64,000 nucleotides of DNA from Candidatus Kapaibacterium sp. Its GTDB lineage: Bacteria; Bacteroidota; Ignavibacteria; Kapaibacteriales; UBA2268. Under the pieces are notes generated by a model. It had not been told where the DNA came from. It searched no databases and worked only from the letters and a program-made list of their open reading frames with translations. The DNA is taken from contig OY761611.1 of the NCBI GenBank assembly GCA_963664875.1, forward strand, positions 1,920,001 to 1,984,000, given 5' to 3'. Shown piece after piece: positions 8,249 through 32,817 of the stretch. The stretch's first letter is position 1, and each line of letters starts with the position of its first letter. The position numbers and the translations under genes were made by a program.

Positions 8249-11200
8249 TTATCTAACAACAACGAAACGTTTAGAAACAGCTTCATTATCGCCTGAGATA
8301 ACTTTAAGAGTATAAGTACCTGCAGGAATCATAGATCTATCCAAATCAATGCTAACTTTATGAAGTCCCATTCCATATTCTTTGTCAAGAATAGGTTGAG
8401 CTACCAAAGTACCTTCTAAGCTGTAAATCTGAATAGTTACCTTACGAGATTCAACCATATCGAGGTCAAATTTCAAATCAGTAACAACCGGGTTAGGTTG
8501 GATTTCAGAAACAGACATAGAAGCAGCACCATTTATAAGAACACTTCTTTCAGCCTGAACTTGTTTGTAACCATCAGAAGCTACGCTTACAAGTCTGTAA
8601 ACATAAGTAGCACCGATAGCAAGAACAGCATCATCATCAGTAAGTTTGTATTTTTTACCGAATTCAGATTCGTTAAGTCCCGCGAGAGCAGAGTTATCTT
8701 CATAAGAAGTAATCATTTCAAACGGTTCCAAACCGGCTTCAGTCATTTCAGCTCTATGAACTTCAAATCCGACATTGTCAGTTTCTCTGATAGTTTCCCA
8801 ATCAAGGAAAGCCTGAGCATCAGCAGAAGTTACATCAAAGCTACGAAGTTCGACGTTTGCATAAGCTTCTTTATATTTAGAAGTTGTAATAGTAGCTGTT
8901 GGACCATCTGCAGCATAAACAACTGTAGACGCTGTAAATGTTGCATCTGAATTAAAAGTATAAAGTTTGAATGTGTATGTTACTAATTTTTGCAATCCTG
9001 TTACATTAATCTGCTGATCAGAACCAAAGTACACAACTCTCGCATTTGCAGTACCACCACCAATCAATGAACCCGTAATTTCATCACAATTGCTTGTATA
9101 AGTTGGAGCACCTATAGAGAAAGCACCATTTGTGTTAGTATATGCAGTTTGAGGAGCCGGAACTGCACTTGGCATTTCAGATCCCTGAATAGCTAACAAT
9201 AACGAGTTTGCACCATTACTATTCCATTGCAATAGGATAGTGCTGCTTGTTTTACTAACTAAATTAAGAGCAGCCGCAGCCGCAGGTGCAGGAGGAGTAA
9301 TATTAAATGTATTACTAATCGCATTTGCAACAAATGGGCTAGCAGGGGTAGCAGTTAAAGCAACTCCAGAAGCTGCATATTGATAAGTCAATCCGCTAAA
9401 TGTAGCAACACCGCTTAACATGTTTGCACTTCCACCATTAGAAATTGCAGTAGTATTAGTAATTGACATATTTACTGTAAATGCAGCATCTGTATCAATA
9501 TTACCGTTTGCATCTTGAGCTTTAACGGTGACATTGTCTTCAACCGGCTCAGCAACGCCTACAGTTGCATTTGTAGGTTGATCCACAAATGCCAATTGAG
9601 TTACTACAACTTGTATTACATTGTTAGAAGCTGCTGTGCTGGATGTATTTGTAAACGTTGTCAACGGAGTTGAATTCGCATCAACTGTTACATTAGTATT
9701 TGCTAAGGTAAATACTAATCGTTTACCATCTGCACCAGCAGGTAATGGGTTCTTAACAGTTAATCTTAAATACATATCGTATGTAGAGTTATCTGCACAG
9801 CTTACTGACAAGTTGCTGAATGTCAAAGCACCTGCTGTAATAACAGCATCACACAATTTTGTTCCTGCTGCGTTAAATAAAGCTGCAGCATGAATATGAG
9901 TATCAAATGCAGCTTGGTTTGAACCTGCAGCATTGATTGTTAATGCAGTAACATTAGTTGGTTTTGTATCTGTATCTGTTGTAATATCATCACGTACAGT
10001 AAGTTTCAATACGCGTGTGCCATTTGTACTTGTTGTTATGTCTCCATTTGTAAGTGAGCTAATGCCATTTGCTTCGTTGCCCGCAAAGACAATATCCGCT
10101 CTTGCATTTGCAGCAGAACACATGTAAACATCGAACAAGTTTGCTTCTGTTCCACCATTAGCAGCTATACCAACAGTGTTTTGACCACCTGTCACGCTTA
10201 CATCTACGTCATCTACGCAAATACCTGCATCTACGATTGTATATGTCATTGTGTATGTCTGGTTGCCGTTGCTCCATGCACCTGAACCGTTAGTAAACGT
10301 GCCGCCTACTGTAGGATCAAATGTAACAACAGGAGCGTTTTGTGTTACATCCATTGGTTGGCTGTAAGTTACAGCAACTGTAAAGTTATTACCGGCATCT
10401 GCATCTTCAACCATCATGTCATTAACAACAATTGAAGTTACATCAGCAGGAGTGTTAGAAATAATAACAAACTCAAAGTTTGCAGGATCTAATACATCCG
10501 TATTACCCAACGCATCAGAAGAGTTAACTTTTACATTTACTCCACCTTCTACAGGACTTGTAGGTACAGTGTAAGAGTAAGTGTAAGTTCCGTTACCAGA
10601 ACCTGAAGCGTATGTTGCTGTTGTATTTGAGTTATCTGCAAATGTCAATGTTACTACAGGTTGATTAGTAACAGCACAGCCTGCATCTGCCAAATCAAAT
10701 GTAATAGATAGGTTGTCACCTTCTACTGCATTTTGCTTAGATACTTCTAAGTTTGACAGCATTGGAGCTGTATTGTCAATCTTGAATTCAGAACCGTCAT
10801 TTGCATTATCTGTAGGTGCGTAAGTTACAGCAATGTTACCTTTAGAATCTACCAAGTTAAATGTAATATTTACATCGCCTGTAGGATCCTGAGGATGAAC
10901 AGTATATACATAGTTAAATACTGTACCTGTAGAACCATCTGTAGTTAAATTACCTACTAATGGTAAACCACTTGAACTTGTCATAGTAACATTAATATCA
11001 CTATGAGCAAAAGTACCGCATCCTAAGTCCTCAGCATTCACTGAGAAATGTATTTGTGTTGCGTTAATTGTAAGCAGCAATGCACCTACACATTCTGCAT
11101 CATCACTATACGCTGACAATACAGGTGCTGTATTATCAATCATAAATGTAGCTGTTTCTGTAATTGTATTGTTAAAGCCGTCAACTGCTGTTACTGTGAT

Positions 11201-14200
11201 TGTTGCTTCGCCAGTATAAGTAGAACCTTGTGGAATTGTATAAGTATATACACCTTCAGATTCTGTTACTGTTGTAGCATTGCCACCGAAAGGTGTTACT
11301 GTTACAGTCAAGTTACTAACAACCTGGTCACAACCTAAGTTAGTTGCTGTTACATCAAATACTAAATTACCATCTAACTCTTTAGATACACATGTTACTC
11401 CCAGTAAATCAATAGCTATATCGAGTGGATTTAGATCTACTGTCATAGCATGAGTTACAGGAGCCAATAGTGTATTACCTAAATCATCACTTGCTGTGAT
11501 ATTGATAATAGGTGCTACATCACCTAGAATTTCTTCCTCTAAATCATCAGCTGCTACTGTATATGTAAATTCATATACAGTAGTTTGTCCTGTTACTGGA
11601 GTCACTGCAGAGATATTAGCAGGAGTACCATTTGTTACTGTTACTGTAATATCGTCTTCGTTAAATGTACCACAACCAACGTCGCTTGCGTTAACTTGGA
11701 ATGTTACTATATCGCCAGGTTCTACGCATGTTGGAGGTGTATTTACTAAAGTAAGTGTTGGTCCTGTTTGGTCAATGCTGTTAACAACATCGCCATTGAC
11801 AGGAGTCATAGCATTACCCTTAGTATCAACTGCATTTACAGTTACTGTACAAGTACCGGTTCCGTTTGCTTCTACGATTGTATGTGTATGAGATACTACA
11901 CCATCGTTGATTGTAAAGTCACCAACTGAAGAGTAAGTAGCATCTGTGCCGTCACTAAAGTCATAAGTTATAGTTACTTCACCAAGATTTGCACAACCTG
12001 CATCTGCAATTGTGAAATCTGTAGTAATTGTATTACCAGTACCTAAACATTGACCTGAAGTAGCATTATTTGTGATTGTTACATCACCTGCAATTGCCGG
12101 TGCTGTATTATCAATCATAAATGGAGCTGTTTCTGTAATTGTATTGCCGAAGCCGTCTACTGCTGTTACAGTAATTGTTGCTTCACCAGTGTATGTTGGA
12201 CCAACCGGAAGTGTATAAGTATAAGTTCCTTCACTTCCTGTAAGCGTAGTAGCTACAGTTTCACCTGTTGCTTGTACTGTTACAGTTAAGTCCTCAATAT
12301 CTGTATCACAACCTAAGTTAGTTGCTGTTACATCAAATACAAATGTACCATCAGTAATTTGAGATACACATGTTGTTTGTGGTAAATCAATAGCTATATC
12401 GAGTGGATTTACATCTACTGTCATAGCGTGAGTTACAGGAGCTAATAGTGTATTACCTAAATCATCACTTGCTGTGATATTGATAATAGGCGCTACATCC
12501 ACAGGAGTTGCCACTGTACCTGCTACTGTATATGTAAATTCATATACATTAGTTTGACCATCAACTGCAGATACTGTAGAAATATTAGCTGAAGTACCAT
12601 CAGTAACTGTTACTGTAATATCGTCTTCGTTAAATACGCCACAACCAACGTCGCTTGCGTTAACTTGGAATGTTACTACATCGCCAGGTTCTACGCATGT
12701 TGGAGGTGTATTTACTAAAGTAAGTGTTGGTCCTGTTTGGTCAATGTTGTTAACAACATCGCCATTGACAGGAGTCATAGCATTACCCTTAGTATCAACT
12801 GCATTTACAGTTACTGTACAAGTACCGGTTCCGTTTACTTCTACGATTGTATGTGTATGAGATACTACACCATCGTTGATAGTAAAGTCACCAACTGAAG
12901 AGTAAGTAGCATCTGTACCGTCACTAAAGTCATAAGTTATAGTTACTTCACCAAGATCTGCACAATCTGCATCTGCAATTGTGAAATCTGTAGTAATTGT
13001 ATTACCAGTACCTAAACATTGACCTGAAGTAGCATTATTTGTGATTGTTACATCACCTGCAATTGCCGGTGCTGTATTATCAATCATAAATGTTGATGTT
13101 TCAGTTACTGTGTTAGCAAAGCCGTCAACTGCTGTTACAGTAATTGTTGCTTCACCAGTATAAGCAGAACCAGTTGGAATTGTATAAGTATAAGTTCCTT
13201 CACTTCCTGTAAGCGTCGTAGCTGCAGTTTCACCTGTTGCTTGTACTGTTACAGTTAAGTCCTCAATATCTGTATCACAACCTAAGTTAGTTGCTGTTAC
13301 ATCAAATACAAATGTACCATCAGTAATTTGAGATACACATGTTGTTTGTGGTAAATCAATAGCTATATCGAGTGGATTTACATCTACAGTCATAGCATGA
13401 GTTACAGGAGCAAGTAGTGTATTACCTAAATCATCACTTGCTGTGATATTGATAATAGGTGCTACATCCACAGGAGTTTCAACTGTACCTGCTACTGTAT
13501 AAGTAAACTCATAATTATATCCATCACCATTTACTGGAGTTACTGCAGAAATATTAGCAGGAGTACCATTAGTTACTGTTACTGTAATATCGTCTTCATC
13601 AAATGTACCACAACCAACGTCGCTTGCGTTAACTTGGAATGTTACTATATCGCCAGGTTCTACGCATGTTGGAGGGTTAGTAGGGCTTACTAAAGTTAGT
13701 GTAGGTTTAGAATTATCTATAGTAAAGGCAGAAGATTGAACTAAGTAACCTTCCATTCCTTTGCTATCTACAATGTTAAATTCTACAGTATATGAGCCAG
13801 TAACATCTGCTGCATCTACAGTATAAGTAAACTGCAATTTGCCATTTACTTCATTCGGTTCGCCTATGTTACCATTGATTAAGTTATTACCATTGTAGAT
13901 ATCAACTTCAAATCCATTGTTTTCTCCATCCCACAAAGCTATATCTTGAGTTGCACAGCCAAGATTTTCATAATCTACGGCAAACGTAACTGTTTGATCT
14001 GCTTTATAGCATGTTGGAGTACTTATCAATGTAAAGTTATCAACTACAGGAACTGAGTTATCAATACTGAATGTAGCAAGGCTAGCATTTGTATTAGCGT
14101 TACCCAAACCATCTGCTGCAGTTACAGAGACAGTTGCTGTTCCTGTGCCGTCGTTAGCTGTTGCTAAGTAAGTAGCAGTATAGTTAGGATAAGTACCTGT

Positions 14201-17200
14201 TACTGTAGCAGCCACTGTATTAGGTGCTTCTTTAGGCAAAGTAATAGTTACAACCGGAGTTGCACCTGCACCACCGCAAGAACCATCTTCTACTGAGAAC
14301 TCAATACTTACAGTTTGACCTGCTTTATAACAGTCATCTTCATCAGGAGTCATATCAGTAAATGCAATTACAGGGCCTGCATTATCAAGTGTAAATGTAG
14401 GAGTTACATCAATAACTGTATCATCCTGACCATTAACTGTACCAGTCACATCTTCTTCAGCCATTTCTGCTGTGTTACCTGCAGGATCAGCTATTATCAA
14501 TGCGATTGAATATGCCCCTTGATCGTGTGCTGTTTGAGGACTTGCAGGGAATGCAAATGTTACAGAAGCATCTCCGGTTTGATCATTATAAGTTACATCT
14601 GTTCCTGTAATCGTTGTACTACCATTTACTGCCTCTGCGCTGATATTACCTGCTGCTAAAGCAGAGCAGATATCATTATCAGTTACATTAAATGTCATTG
14701 TTACTGACTGACCGTCTTTAATGCAATTATCGTCAAGTGCGATAGTAGAAACAACCGGACCATCAGTATCTACATTAAATGTAGTAGAAGCAGCATCAGA
14801 TTCATTATCAGAATCATCAATGTAATCTACTTTCAAAGTATATGTACCTGAAGCGTAAGCTGAAACATCTAATGTACCGGTATAAGTATTAACTGTTTCA
14901 TTAGAAGAACTTGATGCAACAGAGATGTTTCCACCTACCTGAACTGCTGGAATAGCTGTAGTCCAAATAGAAACAGTCGCATTGTTAACACCATTTTCGT
15001 CGCAATCAGTATCATCAATTGTAAAGCTATAAGCTATTTCTGTATTTGAGCAAGCTGTTACTGTACCTAAAGCAATAGCCGGAGCATCATTATCAACAGT
15101 AATAGAATAAGTCAAGTCTTCTGACTCATTCATAGCACCATCGTAGATACTCAATACTACTGATTTTGAACCTTCTTCATCATTTGCCACTGTCAATGGA
15201 ATAAAGTACATGCCTGCATAATCGCCTGCGCCTTCTATTACTCCATCATCAGTTACGATAGAATTAGCAAAAGTAGTGCTTGTCATAAAGAATTGACCAG
15301 AAACAGGAGTAGTTTCTACTACATCAGAAGCTACGATATCACAACCGGCATCTGAAGGTGCAACACCCAAGTAGTATGAACCACCTTGAATACAGTTGTC
15401 TGTTACTTCAGAGTAAACGCCACCTGCTTCAGTATATAATGCAATCTGATCAAGATTTTCATTTACTGCTGCAAAAGCTGGAGCTGTCTTATCTACAGTA
15501 AATGTAGCAATTTCTTCATCAGAATTGCCTGCATCGTCTGTATAAACTACTATCAAGTCATACTGACCATTTGCCAAACCGGAAATATCAATATTACCTG
15601 AGAAAGTACCTTCAGAAATTGTCATTGTACCATCAGCGTCGCCTGCAGCAGGATTACCTGTTAGTTCTATCCAATATTCTGCAGCATTAATACCATCGCC
15701 ACATGTAGAGTTATCTGCTACTGTGAATGAGTATGGCAATAAGCTATTTACACAGTTATCAGAAACCGTGATAGCAGATACTACAGGAAGTGCTGTAGAA
15801 ACATGGAAATTAACTGCCAACTGAGTAGAAGCATTATTTGCATCATCTGTATAGTTAACTGTTACTTGTTTGTCGCCTTGAGCTACATCGCTTAATAACA
15901 ATGTTGCTTCAACTGTCCAAGTTCCGTCTTCGTTATCTGTTACATTAGTTTGTACATTGTTTGCTGTGCTTGGATCAGTAAACGATAAATTATTCAAACC
16001 ATCATAGCAATCTGTTCCAGTTACTTCTTCAGTTACTAAGAATGAAAATGCTAATGTACCGGTCTGATTCAAACAAGCGTCTGTAATAGACGATAGTGAA
16101 AGAGCAGCAGGTGTATTATCAACTGTAAAGCTAATGCTACCTGCAGATACTGCACCATTACCGTCGTTAACTGTAGCTGCGATAGTATAAAGACCATCGT
16201 AGTTTACTACTGGCTCTGTTGTGTTTTCAGGAATATCAATTGTATATTCCCAAGTGTATTTAGTATCTACAGGGCCGGTTGGTTGATTTGCACTAAGCTG
16301 TGCATTCAAACCACCTAAACCTGTAAACTCGATTGTTATATCATCTTGATCTAAACAACCGGCAGCATCAATATCAGCTGATACTGTAAGCGTGATTGTT
16401 TGAGTATGATTATAACATCCACCGTCTTGACCGCTTGCAATAGCTACGCTAGTTGGTTTCAACTGATCTAAGCTAAAGTCAACATCTTCAAAATCAAATT
16501 CTGTTGATGTTGTACCTAAACCGTCTGTTGCTGTTGCATAAACATCAACATCGCCGCTACCGTCAACAGTTTGGATAGTATAAGTAAACGGATAAACATT
16601 ACCTGAAGGCGTGCCTACTGTTGCAGTTTCAACACCACCAGGTAAATCAAGATATACAGTTACTGCATTTACTGGTGAGCAACCTGTTTGATTTACTGTC
16701 ACCGTACCAGAGATAACTGCACCTGTAGTCAAACATGCATCAGCAATACCATCAGCAAAGTCCATTGCAGTGATACTTGGAGCATCATTATCTACTGTAA
16801 ATGTAGCTTCAGAGTATATAATACCATCGATAAATCCGGTTGCAGGATCTTCTGTGCCGTCAAAATCAGCAGCATTACCATTATCATCATCAATAGTAAG
16901 TTCTACTTGGTAAGGGCCGTTTATAGCTGCCTGTGGTACAGTAAATTCTACTGTTACATCATAACCTGTTTGTGGTGTTTCACCATCAACGTCAGTTACT
17001 ACACCTGCAATGCTAAATGGTCCGTTCCAGCTTGTTCTTGCATCTGCATCGATGTTGCCTGCATTAAATGTACCGCAACCTGCTTCTTCTACGTGGAATG
17101 TAGCTGTTACAACAGTTGTTGGAGTTGGCTCTTCCTCATCACCATCATCAGTGTATTTCACGCAAGATTTATCAAGTTGAATATTTGATACTACAGGACC

Positions 17201-20200
17201 TGCATTATCAACGTAGAATTTATCTTCTGCTGTAATTGTAGCGCCTACTGCTGTACCTGTTGCAGCTGGTTCTGCACCATCCATTGTTGCGTAATTGTCT
17301 TTATCATCATCAATTACTAAGCTAACTGTATATAAACCGTCAGTTGTATTGCTTAGTATCGTAAATGTTGCTGTTACATCATAACCATCATTTACATTGC
17401 CTGTAAGTGATGTAATACTACCATTCAATGTAGTTGTTCCATTTGTAGCAGTAGCGCTCACGTTAGCTGCATCAAATGCACCGCAACCGTCTTCTTCTAC
17501 GTGGAATGTTACATCTACTTCTGTTGTTGGATTTTGTCCGCCGTCTTCAGTATAAGCAACACATTGGTCTGCTTCTGCGATATCAATATCCGATACTACA
17601 GGACCAACATTATCTACGTCTATAGAATAAGTTAATTCTTCTGATTCATTCAACAAACCATCGAACAAGCTCAACGTGATTTCTTCTGTTCCATCATCTG
17701 TTGAAGCAATTGCTAATGGGATGTAATACATTCCGCCTACCTCTATAGGTGTGTCTACTGTATTAGCAAATGTTGAAGCTGAAACATAGAACTGGCCTGC
17801 CACTGCTTGGTTTGGAGTATATACTACTGATGTACCTACGATACCATCGCAACCTGCGTCGCTTGGCTCTACGCCTAAGTAGTAATTACCATCAGTTACG
17901 CAAGCGTCTGTTACTAATGTGTAATCTTGACCATCATAAGTATATAATGCAATCTTAGCAGGAGCATTTACTTCTGCAAAAACAGGACCGGAGTTATCAA
18001 CTCTAAACGTTGGTACTGCTGTAATAGTAGCACCTGCTGCGTTTCCTGTTGCAGGATCTTCAACTGCCATTGTTGCAACGTTATCTTGGTCATCATCTAC
18101 TGTCAACGTAATTGTATATTCACCTTCAACGTCTGGAATAGTGAATGTACCTGTTACAGTATAGCCATCATTTGCATTACCTGCGACAACTATTGTAGCA
18201 GGATTGTCAGTTGAAGCAAGTGTTAATGTTGTGCCGCCATTTACTGCTGCAATTGTAATATTGCTTGCATCAAATGTACCACAACCTGCTTCCTCTACGT
18301 CAAATGTTACATCTAAAGTAGTTGTTGGAGTACCTTCCACTTCAGTGTATTTCACGCAAGTTTCGCTTACTGCAATATTTGATACTACAGGGCCTTCGTA
18401 GTCAACACTAAATGCGTCTGCATCTACTACCTGGTCTTCTACTGAGTTGCCTGCGTTATCTGTTACGTTCAATCTTACGCCAATCGCTTCGCCTTGTGGC
18501 TCGTCGCCTTGGATTACGTAAGTAAAGTCGAAATGATTATTTTGATCATCATAAGTATAAGTAGAAGCTATAGCAACGTCTGTTGCGCTTGTCAACGTGC
18601 GGAATGTTCCGCCTTCTGCTGTGTAAAGTTCTACTTCGATGTTTGTTTCATCAATATCAGAACAAACTGCATTATCATCTACTACTATATCAGTAAATAC
18701 TGCATCTGCTCCATTGCCTAAGCAACCTAATGCAAATGCTGCATTTGGAGTTACTGTAGGAGCATCTGTATCTAATACCAAATTCAATGCTTCATCTGCA
18801 TCAGCAACTACTGCATTTAAACCATGGTTCAAATAACCTGTAACTGATAGTAAAGCACCATTTGGATCTTCTGAATCTACTGTATAAGTAAATTCGTAAG
18901 TACCGTCAGGATACAAACCACCTACAGGAGCAGGGTTGCCAGCTGCAGGAGTCATCCATACTGTACTGTTGTCAGAGAATTCTAACTCTGCTTCTACGTT
19001 TTCTACACCACCACAAGAATTTTCATCTACATTTACATTTAATGTAGCAGTGATTACTTTACCTGTACCTAAGCAAGTACCAACTGCATTTGTTGTAGTT
19101 GTTGTAGCTATAGTGTGATTTAATGGATCTATTGTAAACTCAAAGCCTGCAGGATCATAAAGATTACTTAAGTTACCTTTTGAATCTGTAGCTAATACTC
19201 TTACATGTTTTCCACCTTCATCACCCTGAGGTATTGTAAATGTATATTCAAATACATAGTCATCACCTACATTTGAAACAATTTGTGAGAATGTAAGATT
19301 TGCGTTAAATACCGGCAAGAATACAAATATCTTACCAGGATCTGCTGTTTGAAGCTCTGTCAAAGCACCTGTCAAAGTACCACAACCTAAATCAGTAACG
19401 CCAATTTGTAATTTGTAGTTACCTGTGGTAATACAATCTACTACGTTGTCGCCTTGATCTAAAACAGTAATTGATGTTACTGTTGGTTTTGTATTATCAA
19501 TTTGGAAGTACTGAGCATCTACGTCTGATGATGTGTTTTGTGCATCATCTTTTATTGTTGCAGTTATGCTTGCATAGCCTGTCGCATGGTTGCTTGCTAC
19601 TGTTGCCCGGTAGTTAAATGTACCGGCAGGAGCTTCATTTAGAAATGCTACTGGAATAGCTACAGGTGTTGCTGATGCATCTTCCAAAGTAATTGTAATA
19701 TCGTCTTGGTTTAAAGTACCGCATGTTGAAGCGTCTGTTACAACTACACTAAAGTCAACAGTACCTGCAGTTTCGCATGTACCTTTTGCTGATAATGTAA
19801 TAGTTGGAACTGCATTGTCGATACTAAAGCCATCGTTGAGAACAACTGCAACAGGATGGTTACCTGCATCATCCATCACATCAACTGATATAGTTGCTGC
19901 ACCGTTTGTTTCTTCACCAACAAATGTATAAGAATAAGTAAATACATAAGGATCAGCTACTGTACCTGTGCCTGTTCTGCCAACGTAAGTTGCAGAATAA
20001 TTGTGTGCACCTGCATCAATGATTGTTACTTCAATATTTGTTGGACTTACAAATGTGCCACAACCTTCTTCTACTACTGAGAATGAGAACTCAATATCTC
20101 TTGAATCGCCGAAGCAAGTGCCAAGAATTTGATCATCTGTGATAGACAATGAAGCCGCATTTACTGCAGGCTCTACTTTATCTATTGAGAACAATTCTGT

Positions 20201-23200
20201 TGCTGCTACCGCTATAGAAACATTGCCTGCTTCATCTTCATAAGTAATTGAAGGAAGAGTAGCCAGACCATTTGCATCGTCAGCATGAGCTGTGTAAGTA
20301 ATGATAATATTGCCCTCTGTCAATGCTGCTGCTACTGCAACCGCACCATTTAATGCACCTTTATCTACTGTAACTCTTGCAGCATCAAATGTATTACAGT
20401 TTGCATTATTATCTGTTAGTGACACTTGGATATCTACTTCTGTACCTGGTTTGATACAAGTAGGCTCTTCTGCTACTAACACAGGAGTGCCAAGTGTAGG
20501 TTTTGTATTATCTACTGTAAACGCATTTGGTATTGTCAATGAATGACCATCAGCTGCTACGCCTGGATTACCTGCGTTATCTGCAAATGCTACAGTAATA
20601 TCATAATCACCATCTGCTACATCTGCGCCAGGCAATGCATCAGGAAGAGTTAAATCTGCAGATACTGTATAAGGGCTGTTAGCGCCTGTTACATCAATAT
20701 CAGCAGCATCTACTGTTACGCCTGCTGCAGAGATTGTAAAGTTTGCTGCTGTCAAAGCAGAGCACTCTTCAGCATCTGTAACTGTAAATGTAATATTTAT
20801 CACATCACCATCTTTTACGCATGTTGCATTATCTGACAACAAGCTAAGTTCAGGTGCTGAATTATCTACAGTGAAACCAACATTTGAAGCACCCGATGCA
20901 TTACCTGCATCGTCAGTTACTTCCACTGTAAATGTATAGTCACCATCTGCTACTTCAAATAAATTAACTGTGTATGTTACAGTACTTCCATCTATTGAAG
21001 GAGTAGAAAGTACGCCACCTGTTACAGTAGCAGTTGTAATATTTGATGCATCTAATGCACATGATGCTGCATCTGTCATATCAAATGTAATTGTAACATC
21101 TTCTGTACCTGTAGCATCCACTGCACAAGTTGGAGTAGCTTCCAAGTTTGCTATTGAAGGCAAAGACCTATCAATATTAAACGTACCAGTTACTTCGTCT
21201 GAAGCGTTATCAAAATCATCTGTATAGTTTACAGCTATTTGATATGGATTACCTGCTTCATTCAAATCAGCTACGTTTAGAGTATATGTCCATGTGTACG
21301 AACCGTCATTATCCGCAGGCGCACCACCTACTAATACAGGATCATTTCCACTTGGGTCAGTAATTACTGGGGTATTATACTCATTTACTTCTAAAGGATT
21401 ACAATTTACATCGCTTATTGTAAATTCGAACTCTAAAGAGCCATCTACACATGCATCAGTAAACGTAATTGCTGAAATAGTTTGAGGAGTATTATCCACT
21501 GTAAATGTTGCTGTCTCAGGAGCTACCATTGAGTTCCCTGCAGCGTCATTTGTATTGAATGAGAATGTATATGTACCTTCTGCATACGCTGTTTCTTGAG
21601 ATAAGTCAACAGTATATTGCAATGAATACGTACCATTCAAATTATCTGTTGGGCCTACAGCAAGTACCGGATCTGCAGTACCTTTGCCTGCGCCTGTTAC
21701 AGTAGCAGTGTATCCGGAAAGTCCACAATCACCTGCTTCTGTTACTAAAACATTCGCTGTAAGCGTTTGAGTATTATTCAAACAAGCATCAACAATTGTA
21801 ACAGCTGCTGTTGGAGCTGTGTTATCTATTGTGAATAGACTTGGAGAATTAAAACCTGTTTGATTACCAGCGTCATCTATTGCTAATGCATATACATTGC
21901 CTGATTCAGTACCGTCTATTACACGGGAATATGTATATGTATTTCCACTAGATAATGCGACAGACAACATAATATCTGTACCAACATCATAAACAGTGTT
22001 AGCAGGTTCACTCTCTTCTAACCATACTTGCAAATTGCTTGCATCGAACGTGCCACAAACAGGAGCAGGGTCTAATGCAGTAACATTAAAAGATAAAGTA
22101 CCACCGGTTTTGAAGCATGATTGAGATAAAGTATTCACAATTACGCTTGGAGCAGTTTTATCTATATAAATTGTTGCTGTATTACCGGTAGAAGCATTAC
22201 CTTTACTGTCTGTTACAGTATAAGTAAGAACATTATCACCAGCATTATCAGCCGCATCAATAGTTGTTTCATAAACAAATGTATATGATGGGTTTAAGTT
22301 TGCCGGAGCTGCATCAGTATATGCAAGGTTATCAGTAAAGTTATTTGCAGTTACTGTCAAACCACCATTTGCATTATCTATAGCACCGTCCATAGTACCG
22401 CAACCTGTTTCAGTCAAAGTTACATGTAAGTAAACTGTTTGACCTACAGAAGCACAAGTGATAGTATTTGCACTACCATCTGTTGCTGCATCATCTTTCC
22501 AAACTGCTGTTGCAGTTGGTGCTGTATTATCGATTGAGAAAGTCAAATCAGCTGAAGTAACTGAATTGCCTGCTCTATCAACACCTGTTACAGTATATGT
22601 ATAATCGCCAGTATATGATTCAGCAGTCAAACCTGTTAAATCAGCACTCATTGTCTGAGTCACTGTTGCAGCACTAGCGATATCAGCTAATACAAAGTTG
22701 ATCTCCTGTGGAACATCTGGACCAGCAGTCTTATTAACAGTGAAAACATCTTCTTGAACGTTACCATAGCTACCAGCTTCAACTACTGATGTAGCATCAA
22801 AGTCCATAGTAACATTAATTGTATTACCACCCACATAACAATCATCTGCCGGTGCACCTACAAGAGCAGGCTGAGAAGTAAATGTAGGATCTAATATATC
22901 TACATTAATGATTGAGTTTGCTACATCAGTTTCTGCTGAAGCGTTATTATGCTTATCAGTTGCAGTAACTGAAAAGTTAATATCACCACCAGTAGCACCT
23001 TCTAAATCAAACTCATAAGTAATATCCCACACACCTGGTGAAAACTCATTTACATTTGTAATATAAGTTCTTGCATCTGTCGCAGCATCAATTGCTCCAA
23101 CAAATCCTGCAATTGCACCAGTACCAACTTTTTTAGTAAACTCAAGTTTAGCTGCACCAGTAGCAGGTGTAGCATTATTACCTAAATCAGTACCAAAGTC

Positions 23201-25186
23201 ACCACATTCATTTGCATCAGTAACTCTAACCACTACTCTTAAATCTACAGCACCAGTACCATCAGCATTAAAACTGTGTGTAGAAGTATTGTTATCTGTC
23301 AAACGAGTATAGCTTACACTTGTAATTGAAGGAGGAGTGTTATCTACACTAAATGTAGCAGCCGCAGATGCAGCACCAGGATTACCAGCAGGATCTGTAG
23401 GAGTTGCAATGATTTCATAAGTACCACTTGCTTCTCCTGCGATATCAAATGAATATGAATAAACATTTCCTGCAATTAAAGTAGCAGCTTCGTCAGCTGT
23501 TAAACTTGCAATATTATCCACACCACTACCACTAAGAGTAATGTGTGAATCATTCCAAGTACCACATCCATTTTCATCAGTTACAGTCACTGTAAAAGTA
23601 ACTGTTCCAGTTGGACTTGAACATGCACCTGAAGTCACTGCAACAACAGCAGATGGAGCAGAATTATCAATGATATATGCAAATGCACCATCATCGTCAT
23701 TTGCAACAGTAGTTTCATTACCTGCATCATCTGTAACTTTCCAAGCAGCATCACCAGAAACATCGCCATCAGCCACAGTCACAGTTAATGTATAATTTGG
23801 ATCTGCGTCACCTAGTGTTACATCGTCCGCAATTCCATCTTCCATAGTAAAGTGTATTTGATCACCGGCTGCATCATCATAACCGCCATCACTTACACCA
23901 CCAAGAGAAACTACTAAGTTATCTGTATTTTTGAAACAGTCCGCGTTTATAGCAGCTGTAGTTACTACAGGAGCTTTTGTATCAATATAGAATTGATAAG
24001 AAGCAACTGTTTCCTCACTTACAGAACTAAGAAGACCATCTGTATCATATAAAAAGTTTTCTGCACCAGTGATAGCAACATTGCCATCACCTTCAAAAGC
24101 AGAGCCATCGATATCAGTCATGTCACCAGCATCATCTGCAGCAACATCGATAACGATAGCACCTGAAAACTCTTCAGTATTATCCAATAAACTAAAGTAT
24201 TGTCTGTAAACATATTCAAAAGGCCAGTCATCCTGTTCATTTTGCAACTCAGGAATCCATTCGCCTTCACCTTTAGAAATAACAGTAGAATTAACATCAC
24301 CATTACCTTGGAAAGTAATATCAGGTGTGTCATTATAATCCATAATTTCGCTAAATTCTACATCTATATAATAAACACTAGCCAAGTTAGCTTGAACGTA
24401 AGCTTTGTTTACTACATTAGGAGTACCAGCATTCAAATTACTATGTACTTTAACTATAGTAGGCACAGCATCAGCACCGGCAGTAAATGTACCGGTAAGC
24501 CAATTTGAAACTGCACCTTGAGTTGTTACGTATGCAATTTGATATGCATATTGTTGCTCGTGAGTAAGTCCCATTATCACCCAACTATCAGCATTACCGA
24601 TATTTTGAGTAACTGTGGCACCAGTAGACAAATTAGTATAATTCAACAAAACATTAGCACCTGCAGGGCGATTCTCCCAAGCTAAGTGTACTACATTTTG
24701 TGAAACTTTTGGTTCTCCAGCAGCCAACGCTAGCCCCGGTAATGGAGCAATAAACGTAGCCGGGTTAGTTAGCCTTTGAGCGGTGCAATAAGCTGGCGTC
24801 GGAGCACCGCCTGTTTCATTATACTCAAAAGCGTAAACAGTATATTGGCTACCTGCGGTAAGACCAGTAACTGTAACAGTTGTACCTGTGCCAGTGTAAA
24901 CACACTGAGCAGTACCTGATGCAGCAGTATATGCTGTGGCTACACTACCTGTGTAGTCAGTACCATTTTCGGGATTATTTTGCGAATCCCAGGTATTGCC
25001 AGCCATAATAAATACAGCTACTTTCTCGCCATCACCACGCCGCCAGTTGAACGTAACGTCACTGCCGGAAGTAGTCATGGAGATTCTACCTGCCTGCCGC
25101 GTAGGGCTGGTCGCTGCCATAGCATCAGGCACAGCGAGCGCCACCATAAAGAGGCAGAGCAAAAGTAAGTTGAGCACTCGATTCAT
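8249..25186 (-). CDS. Giant (~5645 aa) T9SS-secreted adhesin: signal peptide, FN3-like modules, ~40 tandem Cys-bearing bacterial Ig-like repeats, FN3-like module, T9SS type A CTD
   Basis: ATG at 25186 with GAGGAG RBS (track starts at an upstream TTG, 25201). Recurrent (I/V)DNTAP linkers and DxAGN motifs; pre-CTD NVELRSF...LDWETIRETDNVGFEV; CTD IQPNPV...IYSLEG...AGTYTLKV...KRFVVVR. Confidence 0.9.
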   Translation of the reverse strand: MNRVLNLLLLCLFMVALAVPDAMAATSPTRQAGRISMTTSGSDVTFNWRRGDGEKVAVFIMAGNTWDSQNNPENGTDYTGSVATAYTAASGTAQCVYTGTGTTVTVTGLTAGSQYTVYAFEYNETGGAPTPAYCTAQRLTNPATFIAPLPGLALAAGEPKVSQNVVHLAWENRPAGANVLLNYTNLSTGATVTQNIGNADSWVIMGLTHEQQYAYQIAYVTTQGAVSNWLTGTFTAGADAVPTIVKVHSNLNAGTPNVVNKAYVQANLASVYYIDVEFSEIMDYNDTPDITFQGNGDVNSTVISKGEGEWIPELQNEQDDWPFEYVYRQYFSLLDNTEEFSGAIVIDVAADDAGDMTDIDGSAFEGDGNVAITGAENFLYDTDGLLSSVSEETVASYQFYIDTKAPVVTTAAINADCFKNTDNLVVSLGGVSDGGYDDAAGDQIHFTMEDGIADDVTLGDADPNYTLTVTVADGDVSGDAAWKVTDDAGNETTVANDDDGAFAYIIDNSAPSAVVAVTSGACSSPTGTVTFTVTVTDENGCGTWNDSHITLSGSGVDNIASLTADEAATLIAGNVYSYSFDIAGEASGTYEIIATPTDPAGNPGAASAAATFSVDNTPPSITSVSYTRLTDNNTSTHSFNADGTGAVDLRVVVRVTDANECGDFGTDLGNNATPATGAAKLEFTKKVGTGAIAGFVGAIDAATDARTYITNVNEFSPGVWDITYEFDLEGATGGDINFSVTATDKHNNASAETDVANSIINVDILDPTFTSQPALVGAPADDCYVGGNTINVTMDFDATSVVEAGSYGNVQEDVFTVNKTAGPDVPQEINFVLADIASAATVTQTMSADLTGLTAESYTGDYTYTVTGVDRAGNSVTSADLTFSIDNTAPTATAVWKDDAATDGSANTITCASVGQTVYLHVTLTETGCGTMDGAIDNANGGLTVTANNFTDNLAYTDAAPANLNPSYTFVYETTIDAADNAGDNVLTYTVTDSKGNASTGNTATIYIDKTAPSVIVNTLSQSCFKTGGTLSFNVTALDPAPVCGTFDASNLQVWLEESEPANTVYDVGTDIMLSVALSSGNTYTYSRVIDGTESGNVYALAIDDAGNQTGFNSPSLFTIDNTAPTAAVTIVDACLNNTQTLTANVLVTEAGDCGLSGYTATVTGAGKGTADPVLAVGPTDNLNGTYSLQYTVDLSQETAYAEGTYTFSFNTNDAAGNSMVAPETATFTVDNTPQTISAITFTDACVDGSLEFEFTISDVNCNPLEVNEYNTPVITDPSGNDPVLVGGAPADNDGSYTWTYTLNVADLNEAGNPYQIAVNYTDDFDNASDEVTGTFNIDRSLPSIANLEATPTCAVDATGTEDVTITFDMTDAASCALDASNITTATVTGGVLSTPSIDGSTVTYTVNLFEVADGDYTFTVEVTDDAGNASGASNVGFTVDNSAPELSLLSDNATCVKDGDVINITFTVTDAEECSALTAANFTISAAGVTVDAADIDVTGANSPYTVSADLTLPDALPGADVADGDYDITVAFADNAGNPGVAADGHSLTIPNAFTVDNTKPTLGTPVLVAEEPTCIKPGTEVDIQVSLTDNNANCNTFDAARVTVDKGALNGAVAVAAALTEGNIIITYTAHADDANGLATLPSITYEDEAGNVSIAVAATELFSIDKVEPAVNAASLSITDDQILGTCFGDSRDIEFSFSVVEEGCGTFVSPTNIEVTIIDAGAHNYSATYVGRTGTGTVADPYVFTYSYTFVGEETNGAATISVDVMDDAGNHPVAVVLNDGFSIDNAVPTITLSAKGTCETAGTVDFSVVVTDASTCGTLNQDDITITLEDASATPVAIPVAFLNEAPAGTFNYRATVASNHATGYASITATIKDDAQNTSSDVDAQYFQIDNTKPTVTSITVLDQGDNVVDCITTGNYKLQIGVTDLGCGTLTGALTELQTADPGKIFVFLPVFNANLTFSQIVSNVGDDYVFEYTFTIPQGDEGGKHVRVLATDSKGNLSNLYDPAGFEFTIDPLNHTIATTTTTNAVGTCLGTGKVITATLNVNVDENSCGGVENVEAELEFSDNSTVWMTPAAGNPAPVGGLYPDGTYEFTYTVDSEDPNGALLSVTGYLNHGLNAVVADADEALNLVLDTDAPTVTPNAAFALGCLGNGADAVFTDIVVDDNAVCSDIDETNIEVELYTAEGGTFRTLTSATDVAIASTYTYDDQNNHFDFTYVIQGDEPQGEAIGVRLNVTDNAGNSVEDQVVDADAFSVDYEGPVVSNIAVSETCVKYTEVEGTPTTTLDVTFDVEEAGCGTFDASNITIAAVNGGTTLTLASTDNPATIVVAGNANDGYTVTGTFTIPDVEGEYTITLTVDDDQDNVATMAVEDPATGNAAGATITAVPTFRVDNSGPVFAEVNAPAKIALYTYDGQDYTLVTDACVTDGNYYLGVEPSDAGCDGIVGTSVVYTPNQAVAGQFYVSASTFANTVDTPIEVGGMYYIPLAIASTDDGTEEITLSLFDGLLNESEELTYSIDVDNVGPVVSDIDIAEADQCVAYTEDGGQNPTTEVDVTFHVEEDGCGAFDAANVSATATNGTTTLNGSITSLTGNVNDGYDVTATFTILSNTTDGLYTVSLVIDDDKDNYATMDGAEPAATGTAVGATITAEDKFYVDNAGPVVSNIQLDKSCVKYTDDGDEEEPTPTTVVTATFHVEEAGCGTFNAGNIDADARTSWNGPFSIAGVVTDVDGETPQTGYDVTVEFTVPQAAINGPYQVELTIDDDNGNAADFDGTEDPATGFIDGIIYSEATFTVDNDAPSITAMDFADGIADACLTTGAVISGTVTVNQTGCSPVNAVTVYLDLPGGVETATVGTPSGNVYPFTYTIQTVDGSGDVDVYATATDGLGTTSTEFDFEDVDFSLDQLKPTSVAIASGQDGGCYNHTQTITLTVSADIDAAGCLDQDDITIEFTGLGGLNAQLSANQPTGPVDTKYTWEYTIDIPENTTEPVVNYDGLYTIAATVNDGNGAVSAGSISFTVDNTPAALSLSSITDACLNQTGTLAFSFLVTEEVTGTDCYDGLNNLSFTDPSTANNVQTNVTDNEDGTWTVEATLLLSDVAQGDKQVTVNYTDDANNASTQLAVNFHVSTALPVVSAITVSDNCVNSLLPYSFTVADNSTCGDGINAAEYWIELTGNPAAGDADGTMTISEGTFSGNIDISGLANGQYDLIVVYTDDAGNSDEEIATFTVDKTAPAFAAVNENLDQIALYTEAGGVYSEVTDNCIQGGSYYLGVAPSDAGCDIVASDVVETTPVSGQFFMTSTTFANSIVTDDGVIEGAGDYAGMYFIPLTVANDEEGSKSVVLSIYDGAMNESEDLTYSITVDNDAPAIALGTVTACSNTEIAYSFTIDDTDCDENGVNNATVSIWTTAIPAVQVGGNISVASSSSNETVNTYTGTLDVSAYASGTYTLKVDYIDDSDNESDAASTTFNVDTDGPVVSTIALDDNCIKDGQSVTMTFNVTDNDICSALAAGNISAEAVNGSTTITGTDVTYNDQTGDASVTFAFPASPQTAHDQGAYSIALIIADPAGNTAEMAEEDVTGTVNGQDDTVIDVTPTFTLDNAGPVIAFTDMTPDEDDCYKAGQTVSIEFSVEDGSCGGAGATPVVTITLPKEAPNTVAATVTGTYPNYTATYLATANDGTGTATVSVTAADGLGNANTNASLATFSIDNSVPVVDNFTLISTPTCYKADQTVTFAVDYENLGCATQDIALWDGENNGFEVDIYNGNNLINGNIGEPNEVNGKLQFTYTVDAADVTGSYTVEFNIVDSKGMEGYLVQSSAFTIDNSKPTLTLVSPTNPPTCVEPGDIVTFQVNASDVGCGTFDEDDITVTVTNGTPANISAVTPVNGDGYNYEFTYTVAGTVETPVDVAPIINITASDDLGNTLLAPVTHAMTVDVNPLDIAIDLPQTTCVSQITDGTFVFDVTATNLGCDTDIEDLTVTVQATGETAATTLTGSEGTYTYTIPTGSAYTGEATITVTAVDGFANTVTETSTFMIDNTAPAIAGDVTITNNATSGQCLGTGNTITTDFTIADADCADLGEVTITYDFSDGTDATYSSVGDFTINDGVVSHTHTIVEVNGTGTCTVTVNAVDTKGNAMTPVNGDVVNNIDQTGPTLTLVNTPPTCVEPGDVVTFQVNASDVGCGVFNEDDITVTVTDGTSANISTVSAVDGQTNVYEFTYTVAGTVATPVDVAPIINITASDDLGNTLLAPVTHAMTVDVNPLDIAIDLPQTTCVSQITDGTFVFDVTATNLGCDTDIEDLTVTVQATGETVATTLTGSEGTYTYTLPVGPTYTGEATITVTAVDGFGNTITETAPFMIDNTAPAIAGDVTITNNATSGQCLGTGNTITTDFTIADAGCANLGEVTITYDFSDGTDATYSSVGDFTINDGVVSHTHTIVEANGTGTCTVTVNAVDTKGNAMTPVNGDVVNSIDQTGPTLTLVNTPPTCVEPGDIVTFQVNASDVGCGTFNEDDITVTVTNGTPANISAVTPVTGQTTVYEFTYTVAADDLEEEILGDVAPIINITASDDLGNTLLAPVTHAMTVDLNPLDIAIDLLGVTCVSKELDGNLVFDVTATNLGCDQVVSNLTVTVTPFGGNATTVTESEGVYTYTIPQGSTYTGEATITVTAVDGFNNTITETATFMIDNTAPVLSAYSDDAECVGALLLTINATQIHFSVNAEDLGCGTFAHSDINVTMTSSSGLPLVGNLTTDGSTGTVFNYVYTVHPQDPTGDVNITFNLVDSKGNIAVTYAPTDNANDGSEFKIDNTAPMLSNLEVSKQNAVEGDNLSITFDLADAGCAVTNQPVVTLTFADNSNTTATYASGSGNGTYTYSYTVPTSPVEGGVNVKVNSSDALGNTDVLDPANFEFVIISNTPADVTSIVVNDMMVEDADAGNNFTVAVTYSQPMDVTQNAPVVTFDPTVGGTFTNGSGAWSNGNQTYTMTYTIVDAGICVDDVDVSVTGGQNTVGIAANGGTEANLFDVYMCSAANARADIVFAGNEANGISSLTNGDITTSTNGTRVLKLTVRDDITTDTDTKPTNVTALTINAAGSNQAAFDTHIHAAALFNAAGTKLCDAVITAGALTFSNLSVSCADNSTYDMYLRLTVKNPLPAGADGKRLVFTLANTNVTVDANSTPLTTFTNTSSTAASNNVIQVVVTQLAFVDQPTNATVGVAEPVEDNVTVKAQDANGNIDTDAAFTVNMSITNTTAISNGGSANMLSGVATFSGLTYQYAASGVALTATPASPFVANAISNTFNITPPAPAAAAALNLVSKTSSTILLQWNSNGANSLLLAIQGSEMPSAVPAPQTAYTNTNGAFSIGAPTYTSNCDEITGSLIGGGTANARVVYFGSDQQINVTGLQKLVTYTFKLYTFNSDATFTASTVVYAADGPTATITTSKYKEAYANVELRSFDVTSADAQAFLDWETIRETDNVGFEVHRAEMTEAGLEPFEMITSYEDNSALAGLNESEFGKKYKLTDDDAVLAIGATYVYRLVSVASDGYKQVQAERSVLINGAASMSVSEIQPNPVVTDLKFDLDMVESRKVTIQIYSLEGTLVAQPILDKEYGMGLHKVSIDLDRSMIPAGTYTLKVISGDNEAVSKRFVVVR
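11130..13680 (-). repeat. Intragenic tandem duplication, 969-bp (323-aa, three-domain) unit, about 2.6 copies
   Basis: TACGCATGTTGGAGG recurs at 11723, 12692 and 13661 (spacing 969); near-identical DNA between copies. Confidence 0.92.
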
Positions 25187-25290
25187 AGAGCGTCTCCTCA
25201 ATAATTAAAAAAAACAGAATTTAGTATCAATTGCCCATAGTCATGGCACGCAAATTGTGGAAAACTATCGCTTAATTACGCGCCAAAGCA

Positions 25291-26286: not shown

Positions 26287-27357
26287 TTAGTCTTTTTTCG
26301 TAGTAACCTTGATCACATTAGAAAAGCCTGTGATGCCGGATTTGAGCATAGCCCGCACGCGGTAGTAGTACGTTTTTCCTGCTTCCAGATTGTCAATATC
26401 CCAATCATTTACTGGCATGATAGTGATGTTCGAGTAGTTAGGGAGCAGCTGAGAAAAGTTTTCGTCCGTAGCTACATCGAGGATATAATTTTTTGCATCT
26501 TCGACCTTCTCCCACTGAGCAAGGAAGTGATCGCCGCTAACATCTTTAGCTTCGAGAGCCTTAGGAGCAGGCGGCAGTGCAGTGTAAGTGCGAACAAAGC
26601 GAGAATCTTTCTTTTTAGGCAAAGCGTAAACAGTGTTTTCACCGGAGCCGTTAGCTTCTATCGCAGCAATAGTATAAGTCTTACCTGGTTTTAAACCTGA
26701 TAAGCGAATGCTTGCTTGCGTTTTACCGGTATTTTTTTCGATACATGATGTTTTAGTATCCTTAACGAGAGATTGTCCGTAAGTGGCATTAGGGATTGCC
26801 TCGTACTTGTTTTTCGGTAGTTTTATATCATTTCCCTCGGCAACAAAGATAAAAGTAGCATCGCCATTGCCTCGCATATAAGAAAGCGTAATAGATCCGT
26901 CGGAATTCTCGCTGATAGCAAGATTACGAGGAGTAATGCTTGGAGATTTAGGTAAAGTCATGACATCAAAAGACTTTAGCAAAAGCGAATAGTCCGGTGC
27001 TTTCTCATTATTAAAGCTATAGACATCTAATTTATATTTAGTGCCCGGAACTAAGCCTTTTATATCGAGCTTATTATTTTTGACTTTCCCTGTAAAGATC
27101 GGGTAATTTTTTTTGCCGATAATATTGTTTTCAGCCTTAGATATGTCCGCCACAGGCTTATAGACAGTGCCGTTAGTAGGCGGGAAATTAGATATTTTAT
27201 CTTCCCTAAGCACAAGCAGGAAAGCAGACTGCCCGGCAGACTTGATAGTAAACGAAAGGGACTCCTGCTCAGCATCGACATTAGTAACTTCATCGATGGC
27301 AAAAAGCGAGATAGAAAGGGCGATGAAGAGCGTCAAAACAGCGAAAATGTTTTTCAT
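26287..27357 (-). CDS. Secreted fibronectin type III domain protein (two FN3-like modules shared with the giant adhesin plus a canonical FN3), no T9SS CTD
   Basis: Signal peptide from MKNIFAV (ATG 27357); GLVPGTKYKLDVYSFN, RGNGD...GLKPGKTYTIAAIEAN, C-terminal AQWEKV..AKNYILDVATDENF...NLEAGKTYYYRVRA. Confidence 0.85.
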   Translation of the reverse strand: MKNIFAVLTLFIALSISLFAIDEVTNVDAEQESLSFTIKSAGQSAFLLVLREDKISNFPPTNGTVYKPVADISKAENNIIGKKNYPIFTGKVKNNKLDIKGLVPGTKYKLDVYSFNNEKAPDYSLLLKSFDVMTLPKSPSITPRNLAISENSDGSITLSYMRGNGDATFIFVAEGNDIKLPKNKYEAIPNATYGQSLVKDTKTSCIEKNTGKTQASIRLSGLKPGKTYTIAAIEANGSGENTVYALPKKKDSRFVRTYTALPPAPKALEAKDVSGDHFLAQWEKVEDAKNYILDVATDENFSQLLPNYSNITIMPVNDWDIDNLEAGKTYYYRVRAMLKSGITGFSNVIKVTTKKD

Positions 27358-27414
27358 AAGCGTATCATTTGAGTTAAACATATAAACAAATATACTAAAA
27401 GTAGGCGATAATAT

Positions 27415-27453
27415 AAAAAAAAACGCGGCCTCTTATAGAAAGAGACCACGTTT
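27415..27453 (-). terminator. Rho-independent terminator after the fibre gene
   Basis: Minus strand ACGTGGTCTCTT-TCTAT-AAGAGGCCGCGT plus T run. Confidence 0.8.
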
Positions 27454-27489
27454 AATATATTCAATCTATTGTGAAATAGATTATGATTC

Positions 27490-32748: not shown

Positions 32749-32817
32749 TACTTTGCACTCCTAAACGATGTTATACAAAAAAATCTCATTTTATTATCTA
32801 ATTTCTTATTCGAATGA

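Follow-up and report, generated by a model that had tools for sequence, protein, structure and literature searches.

Giant stalks of immunoglobulin (Ig)-like repeats are a common bacterial means of holding an adhesive tip off the cell. Two ways of stiffening such stalks are known, namely Ca2+ in the adhesins exported by Gram-negative type I secretion systems (T1SS) and intradomain isopeptide or ester bonds in Gram-positive bacteria. The present analysis concerns the gene of a giant Ig-repeat protein from Candidatus Kapaibacterium sp., located in a stretch of 64,000 nucleotides (contig OY761611.1 of assembly GCA_963664875.1, positions 1,920,001 to 1,984,000 of the forward strand) that is referred to below as the window. 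The repeats carry two recurrent cysteines, C1 and C2, and their distribution suggests that C1 of one repeat, C1(n), is the partner of C2 of the following repeat, C2(n+1). If the partners are joined by disulfides, a periodic chain of inter-domain bonds would be a third stiffening solution.

SiiE of Salmonella and the extender repeats of RTX adhesins (MpIBP RII, Lap family) form giant Ig stalks whose domain interfaces are stiffened by Ca2+. Among solved structures, SiiE (2yn3) was the best sequence match (E 1.6e-9); the alignment extends over the C-terminal half of the repeat, with a 'D-x-x-G-N' motif and the linker Asp. The tandem-Ig rod fold is also alike, with TM values of 0.37-0.41 for 2yn3 and similar ones for FdeC and titin. 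In a fold search of the PDB these same tandem-Ig rods (FdeC, titin and SiiE) were the best matches (TM 0.2-0.4); the PDB held no structure whose title names an inter-domain bond of the proposed kind and no close relative carrying the C1/C2 cysteines. SiiE and the RTX adhesins are exported by T1SS, whereas the protein described here has a type IX secretion system (T9SS) sorting domain and no RTX repeats. They also lack cysteines at C1 and C2, these columns holding Val and Val/Glu in SiiE R28, whereas a cysteine pair is added at the interfaces of the present stalk.

Intramolecular covalent cross-links in Ig-like stalk domains are known from Gram-positive pilins such as Spy0128. A giant adhesin of Mobiluncus mulieris is a further example of intramolecular cross-linking of the isopeptide, ester or thioester type (PMC10619420). 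Such links resemble those proposed here in shortening the force-bearing path and in guarding against mechanical and proteolytic unfolding, and the present stalk would, if the proposal is correct, be the disulfide counterpart of isopeptide-locked Gram-positive pili. The Gram-positive bonds are autocatalytic and intradomain, formed by Lys, Asn, Asp, Thr and Gln, whereas inter-domain disulfides through up to 36 repeats are proposed here. In a eukaryotic Ig-superfamily receptor, the IL-1 receptor, a single inter-domain disulfide connects D1 and D2. The Chlamydomonas mastigoneme protein MST1 has a disulfide ladder, with bonds described as clustered within Sushi and Ig domains (PMC10602792). In such proteins disulfides serve to fix tandem extracellular beta-sandwich modules and to toughen a surface filament, as they would in the present protein, but they are isolated or clustered bonds made in the eukaryotic endoplasmic reticulum and not a periodic C1(n)-C2(n+1) chain. 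The top-ranked full-text literature results contained no description of an inter-domain disulfide chain in a bacterial Ig-repeat adhesin, which is not proof that none has been published.

Cysteine register and the proposed disulfide chain

A hidden Markov model (HMM) made from the protein's own repeats delimited 39 contiguous Ig-like repeats of 96-145 aa each (aa 409-4918, window positions 10448-23977), which are a subset of the 44 HMM matches listed at an i-Evalue < 1e-3. They are numbered d01-d39. A previous interpretation made from the letters alone, here called the sequence-only reading, had placed the array at 10460-23990, in agreement with this span; its repeat numbers are higher by one because it counts a flanking domain at each end.

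C1 occupies column 13 of the profile, about 11 residues past the linker proline, and occurs in 37 of the 39 repeats. C2, in a 'G-C-G'-like context at column 31, is likewise found in 37 repeats (36 in the column itself, one shifted by an insertion in d23). Within a repeat the two cysteines are 16-29 residues apart. Most repeats contain both, and the incomplete ones follow a distinct order: d01 has only C1, d02 both, d03 only C2, d04 only C1, d05-d38 both and d39 only C2. The domain preceding d01 is cysteine-free and thus offers no partner to a C2 in d01; the domain following d39, which opens the C-terminal non-array region and was repeat 41 of the earlier numbering, lacks a cysteine at the C2 position. 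The sequence-only reading had noted that repeats without C1 and repeats without C2 are offset by one domain, and the states of the repeats bear this out in every particular.

When C1(n) is paired with C2(n+1), all 74 cysteines are accommodated in 37 pairs and no orphan is left, in comparison to 35 pairs and four orphans for pairing within the same domain. Random placement of two C1-less and two C2-less repeats among 39 would give a layout consistent with the offset with a probability of 1/C(39,2) = 1/741. The proposed pairs fall into two chains, a short one with Cys422-Cys546 and Cys527-Cys666, and a long one with 35 consecutive inter-repeat pairs from Cys788-Cys934 through Cys4704-Cys4842. 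Two array cysteines stand outside the scheme (aa 4128 in d32 and aa 4451 in d35); both are located in a late strand of the last repeat in copies one and two of a three-repeat super-repeat.

The positions of C1 and C2 in the fold were assessed with an AlphaFold2 model of d09-d11. It was built from 25 three-repeat windows aligned in register, 12 of 37 candidate triples having been excluded as aligned one repeat out of register. The model (mean pLDDT 88.8, pTM 0.74) consists of all-beta repeats, as expected of seven-strand beta-sandwiches set head to tail. In d09, C1 (residue 12) follows strand A (residues 2-9), and C2 (residue 34) follows strand B (residues 21-29); the corresponding positions in the other two repeats are 114 and 235 for C1, 120-128 and 241-249 for strand B, and 133 and 255 for C2. 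All three repeats thus have the same order, an 8-residue strand A, a two-residue bridge that contains C1, a turn, a 9-residue strand B and C2, with C2 five or six residues past strand B in the B-C loop.

In the standard Ig topology, strand A ends at the exit pole of the domain, where the A'-B turn is also found, and the B-C loop is situated at the entry pole. Since C1 and C2 flank strand B, they are expected at opposite poles, one domain length apart, which makes a bond within the same domain very unlikely. The modelled secondary structure thereby upholds the topological argument of the sequence-only reading, and C1(n) and C2(n+1) would both point towards the junction that the five-residue linker spans. 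A related protein with a different cysteine scheme, P0102, agrees with a location of C1 at the exit, C-terminal, pole: the partner of its C1-column cysteine stands some 113 residues downstream, where that repeat ends. Modelling of d09 and d10 as separate chains gave a score of 0.00 (mark 0.32) and speaks neither for nor against the contact.

The interfaces also retain residues that match the calcium ligands of SiiE. An Asp, Glu or Asn is present at column 28, three residues before C2, in 38 of the 39 repeats; in the 'D-x-x-G-N' motif the Asp of column 90 is kept in 38 and the Asn of column 94 in 35, and the linker Asp of column 107 in 32. Columns 90, 94 and 107 align with SiiE motifs, and column 28 is presumed equivalent to D43 of SiiE. 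In SiiE the interface Ca2+ is bound by D117 of the preceding domain together with D43 and D97 of the next, according to the published structure report (PMC5466336). Judged from these retained residues, Ca2+ is probably bound at the interfaces of the present stalk too, and the cysteines would most likely supplement the calcium and not replace it. The contrast drawn by the sequence-only reading, a rod stiffened by disulfides where known giant adhesins use Ca2+, is not supported in that form, as the SiiE-matching interface residues are kept in 32-38 of 39 repeats and both features are probably present.

Cadherins offer a comparable arrangement. The present linker is Asp-x-Asn-x-x-Pro-like, as in cadherins, and weak matches to protocadherin and desmoglein were obtained (E 0.0025-0.8). 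In classical cadherin, Ca2+ bridges Glu11 near strand A of one domain and an Asp-x-Asp past strand B of the next, which by visual comparison we take to be the same two places of the fold as C1 and C2. The difference would be a covalent sulfur link instead of, or beside, the ion.

We favour the interpretation that C1(n) and C2(n+1) form inter-domain disulfide staples which connect the repeats into a continuous covalent cable, and assign it a probability of about two in three. Spatial proximity, disulfide chemistry and the mechanical consequence are the parts of this interpretation that we infer. The stapled rod had also been the proposal of the sequence-only reading, of which the pairing register, with the co-variation described below and the placement around strand B, is retained.

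According to this interpretation the stalk would consist of 39 cadherin/SiiE-like Ig repeats on a T9SS-exported fibrillar protein. C1 would lie in the short A' bridge before strand B, at the C-terminal pole, and C2 at the N-terminal pole, within the B-C loop; as the linker is short, C1(n) and C2(n+1) would face the same interface and form a disulfide beside the retained SiiE-type Ca2+ site. Two stapled runs are predicted, d01-d03 and d04-d39, the latter with 35 consecutive staples. The path from staple to staple would comprise about 18 residues through strand B, one domain length, so that staples and B strands together would make up one nearly straight covalent cable. The other approximately 90 residues of each repeat would be bypassed and remain outside the force path, and the stalk would thus be stiff and hard to extend. 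Such a rod might be extended less than two-fold, in comparison to about ten-fold for an unbraced Ig chain. If this is true, reduction would cost the stalk its stiffness, and unfolding steps of about 35 nm would appear only after reduction. The repeat is also a potential building block for engineered protein rods that are rigid and redox-addressable.

Homologous repeats and coupled changes at the junctions

A word-indexed search yielded ten giant homologues, and a full profile search recovered 15,334 (E <= 1e-3); the best 150 of these proteins were examined. Most relatives align with the repeat only over its C-terminal half, and their cysteines are absent or stand in other columns. Among the matches listed, the C1/C2 scheme occurs in 22 proteins, which comprise three families of giant proteins and a few singletons. 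Intact orthologues of 4838-5492 aa are present in three of four other genomes of the same genus; with the same query, none was found in 36 more distant genomes.

Seven proteins could be segmented cleanly (P0001, P0003, P0004, P0005, P0006, P0013 and P0014). In 212 adjacent pairs of repeats from this set, C1(n) and C2(n+1) were both present in 201 cases and both absent in 11, and not a single pair was discordant. Within repeats, in contrast, 25 of 221 were half-filled (12 with only C1 and 13 with only C2). In these homologous repeats C1(n) co-varies with C2(n+1) and not with the C2 of its own repeat, as the sequence-only reading had claimed. In a third family (P0007, P0008, P0009 and P0011, inspected by eye) all 11 chains open with a C1-only repeat and close with a C2-only repeat. 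P0019 has a chain of one C1-only repeat, five repeats with both cysteines and one C2-only repeat. The observation extends beyond the present protein, and the pairing register is well supported.

Two apparent exceptions were resolved. The chain of P0019 is interrupted by a cysteine-free gap of about 300 aa, which was considered as a counter-example and rejected; it is due to 'Y-D-G'-type repeats inserted into a single repeat, and the chain is therefore intact. The leading 'C2-only' state of P0003 was found to be a forced alignment of the cysteine that ends a preceding FN3-like domain, and P0001 has no cysteine at this place.

The four within-genus orthologues (P0001, P0003, P0005 and P0006) are mosaics. 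Between the conserved repeats d02 and d05, P0001 and P0006 have a C2-only followed by a C1-only repeat, P0003 has two complete repeats and P0005 has none. Repeats d07 and d08 of P0001, both complete, are the best matches of d09 (C2-only) and d10 (C1-only) of P0005 and P0006, with 36-45% identity. Partner cysteines are therefore jointly present or jointly absent at two junctions, and in every within-genus version each neighbour-facing cysteine has its partner. The position of the unpaired junction varies, being after the third repeat, after the ninth, or both.

In the present protein the linker at the unpaired junction d03/d04 is normal and the acidic residues of the interface are retained; only the cysteine pair is absent. 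An AlphaFold2 model of d03-d05 reached a pLDDT of 73.6 and a pTM of 0.64, and the comparison with the pTM of 0.74 obtained for d09-d11 is confounded by low-confidence insertions in d03. The junction is near the N-terminal end of the protein. Other T9SS cargo whose C-terminal domain (CTD) is of type A is anchored by the C-terminus; if this applies here, the junction would be located at the distal tip. It is possible that it acts as a hinge, as the sequence-only reading had proposed, and the redox-switchable rod of that reading is speculation.

Smaller and more distant relatives were surveyed as well. In the 120 proteins listed of 170 mid-size relatives (728-2075 aa, E <= 1e-10), whose differing contexts make the column labels unreliable, no chain of two or more both-cysteine repeats was found. 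Haloarchaeal surface proteins with PGF-type anchors and proteins of Verrucomicrobia (P0162, P0165-P0167 and P0241) contain repeats of the family without the C1/C2 chain; the fold is thus widespread and the cysteine scheme narrow. P0118, a giant relative with another cysteine scheme, has four cysteines per repeat, at columns 31, 62, 76 and 92 in 26-27 repeats.

Two further observations were made in the giant homologues. The insertion of P0019 (aa ~760-1060, about 300 residues) consists of seven 'Y-D-G...S-L-A...' units that resemble propeller blades, and it is possible that it represents a ligand-binding module within a stalk repeat, like the split domains of RTX adhesins. The central parts of P0007, P0008, P0009 and P0011 contain a second type of repeat, with one cysteine 2-3 residues past the linker proline and another about 95-98 residues further on, near the end of the last strand. 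Cysteine pairs 22-24 residues apart also straddle the linkers. These cysteines may be another tie between neighbouring domains.

Alternative explanations and redox setting

Several observations weigh against the disulfide interpretation. The proximity of C1(n) and C2(n+1) is deduced from the Ig topology of the modelled strands, and the mature giant protein has an odd number of cysteines, 83. In the automatic table of all 22 proteins, 32 of 390 adjacent pairs were discordant. Of these, 17 came from P0102 with its different scheme; the remainder was attributed, by protein and not pair by pair, to truncated fragments (P0033, P0089), to caps that the profile had not detected and to a second domain type. 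The check by eye covered P0007, P0008, P0009, P0011, P0019, P0024, P0033, P0089 and P0102; six further members of the third family (P0010, P0012, P0016, P0020, P0022 and P0052) entered the table through the automatic assignment. P0024 has a run of 23 both-cysteine repeats without canonical caps, and its neighbouring domains have cysteines at other positions. P0161 has one C2-type cysteine followed by one C1-type cysteine, which cannot be paired under either model. Moreover, the homologues are kin, and the counts therefore overstate the number of independent events.

The redox inventory of the genome points in the same direction. No match to VKOR, DsbB or DSBA was obtained at E <= 0.001 in this complete single-contig genome, and the only Thioredoxin_4 (DsbA-like) match remained below threshold (20.8 bits, cut-off 23.2); seven Thioredoxin_2-type frames passed their cut-off. 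A bias towards even cysteine numbers is reportedly seen in organisms whose exported proteins acquire structural disulfides. Such a bias was absent in the T9SS cargo of this genome: of 143 open frames with a signal-peptide-like start, taken from 150 CTD matches, the cysteine count was even in 70 and odd in 72, and one frame had none. Over ten trimming variants the even class comprised 65-77 and the odd class 62-74 frames (p >= 0.23). The exported proteins thus give no general sign of structural or periplasmic disulfides. Cysteines as such are common in the cargo, occurring in 142 of the 143 frames in an oxygen-respiring genome.

These data bear on the best surviving alternative, in which C1(n) and C2(n+1) meet as reduced thiols that bind metal together with acidic neighbours, or merely pack, and form no disulfide. 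Co-variation reveals coupling and not chemistry, the lack of DsbA, DsbB and VKOR matches and of an even-cysteine bias would be accounted for, and C2 is three residues past an acidic or amide residue (38/39 repeats) at a position matched to a Ca2+ ligand of SiiE. However, the protein is extracellular and the organism has two terminal oxidases; juxtaposed thiols normally oxidise in air. Paired thiolates would also be an unusual Ca2+ site, and the repeat has no conserved histidine or further cysteine. Reduced or metal-bridged partners are in our view unlikely, yet they are a serious rival and deserve more weight than any of the explanations that follow.

For the disulfides favoured here, a route of formation has to be considered, since 37 non-consecutive bonds would have to be made correctly in an organism in which no DsbA, DsbB or VKOR was found, a folding puzzle in its own right. 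Both circumstances point to closure driven by proximity after folding. Two genes for heme-copper oxidase subunit I (COX1) indicate that the organism respires oxygen, which favours the closure of pre-aligned thiols after folding and probably after export. The staples would then close by proximity once the domains have folded, probably through oxidation outside the cell, and the correct formation of non-consecutive pairs would be explicable. Spontaneous extracellular oxidation is a possible route for exported cysteines in this organism. Taken to its full extent, the proposal describes a 'self-curing cable' of about 150 nm, in which up to 35 consecutive interleaved disulfides are closed by extracellular oxygen without DsbA, DsbB or VKOR, on top of a calcium junction, and which would be essentially inextensible, with about 90 of every 110 residues sheltered from force; the chances for and against this extended version appear to us evenly balanced.

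A classical intra-domain C1-C2 disulfide, with the half-filled repeats as degenerate ends of the array, would suit the presence of both cysteines in 35 of the 39 repeats and the 23 successive complete repeats of P0024, which has no half-filled caps. But in each of the three modelled repeats a 9-residue strand separates the two cysteines; such a strand spans roughly 30 Å, too far for a disulfide. This explanation also does not predict that the caps are always C1-only at the N-terminal end and C2-only at the C-terminal end. The phase of the duplicated unit was considered as a cause of the caps and rejected, as a cut between C1 and C2 would leave a C2-only repeat at the N-terminal and a C1-only repeat at the C-terminal end, the reverse of what is seen. 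We consider intra-domain bonds highly improbable.

The same low probability is given to an accidental register that persists through shared ancestry, with the cysteines conserved for an unrelated reason. The kinship of the counted proteins, with few independent events, and the misfits P0161 and P0024 would be in line with this explanation; the chance of 1/741 within the protein, the correct caps in three families and the coupled changes at two junctions argue against it. Intermolecular disulfides, for instance between molecules that lie staggered in a bundle or in a mesh on the surface, are equally improbable: parallel molecules shifted by one repeat would give the same offset co-variation, but the stagger would have to be exactly one repeat along 35 unequal repeats (96-145 aa), the five-residue linker already holds an in-chain partner close, which is simpler, and AlphaFold2 confidently models a rod for the single chain.

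Gene, protein architecture and genomic setting

The features of the gene are compiled in Table 1. The open frame extends to a TTG at 25201 (8249..25201, minus strand; 5650 residues), and the ATG at 25186, five codons further in, is the start of an identical database protein of 5645 aa.

Table 1. Positions of the giant surface-protein gene and its parts in the window
Feature	Position	Strand	Basis
Giant surface-protein gene	8249..25186	minus	Open reading frame list and identical database protein
Signal-peptide-like N-terminus (basic residues, hydrophobic run, Ala-x-Ala end)	25115..25186	minus	By eye
N-terminal FN3-like region with cysteines at aa 100 and 139	24482..25114	minus	Weak Pfam matches under cut-off
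Cysteine-free domain preceding the array (aa 241-408; repeat 1 of the sequence-only reading)	23978..24481	minus	
Chain 1, d01-d03 (aa 409-775), C1-only/both/C2-only	22877..23977	minus	
Junction d03/d04 (aa 775/776), no cysteine pair	22868..22885	minus	
Chain 2, d04-d39 (aa 776-4918), C1-only/34 both/C2-only	10448..22876	minus	
d09-d11 (aa 1348-1678), AlphaFold2-modelled fragment	20168..21160	minus	
d03-d05 (aa 625-1016), AlphaFold2-modelled fragment spanning the unpaired junction	22154..23329	minus	
Triplicated three-repeat super-repeat, d30-32/d33-35/d36-38	10772..13711	minus	
C-terminal non-array region (aa 4919-5568)	8498..10447	minus	
T9SS C-terminal sorting domain (Por_Secre_tail, PF18962)	8258..8497	minus	Pfam

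Along the protein, Pfam Ig-like families were recognised as Big_13 (PF19077; 59.8 and 35.0 bits, cut-off 27) and, in the N-terminal half, Big_3_3 (PF13750; 47.1 bits). The Por_Secre_tail match covers aa 5569-5648 of the 5650 residues with 31-39.5 bits (cut-off 27), and the Pfam scans of the giant protein gave no RTX (HemolysinCabind) match. Judged by its domain content, the product is a T9SS-exported, Ig-repeat surface protein. The genome, a single contig of 3.83 Mb rated 100% complete, also encodes a T9SS translocon; SprA, the only core component searched for, was detected as an SprA_N match of 154.5 bits in a frame of 2324 aa. At least 150 frames bear a T9SS CTD. The signal-peptide-like region of the giant protein contains one cysteine, outside the C1/C2 scheme, and the C-terminal non-array region five further ones.

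The super-repeat near the end of the array (aa 3831-4810) consists of three near-identical copies with a unit of about 323 aa, and the orthologues have differing copy numbers of a similar three-repeat unit. This pattern points to recent unequal recombination by which the cysteine register was preserved.

The genes adjoining the giant gene are unrelated housekeeping or surface genes. No oxidoreductase was found among the neighbouring genes; a rhodanese-like gene 7 kb off has no evident link. Just upstream on the same strand are the genes of a 364-aa FN3 protein (26287-27381), of a frame of 1752 aa that shows only weak bactofilin-like matches (27490-32748) and of a 194-aa FlgD_ig/CTD protein (32818-33402). 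These three frames (26287-33402) may form one surface-protein cluster with the giant gene.

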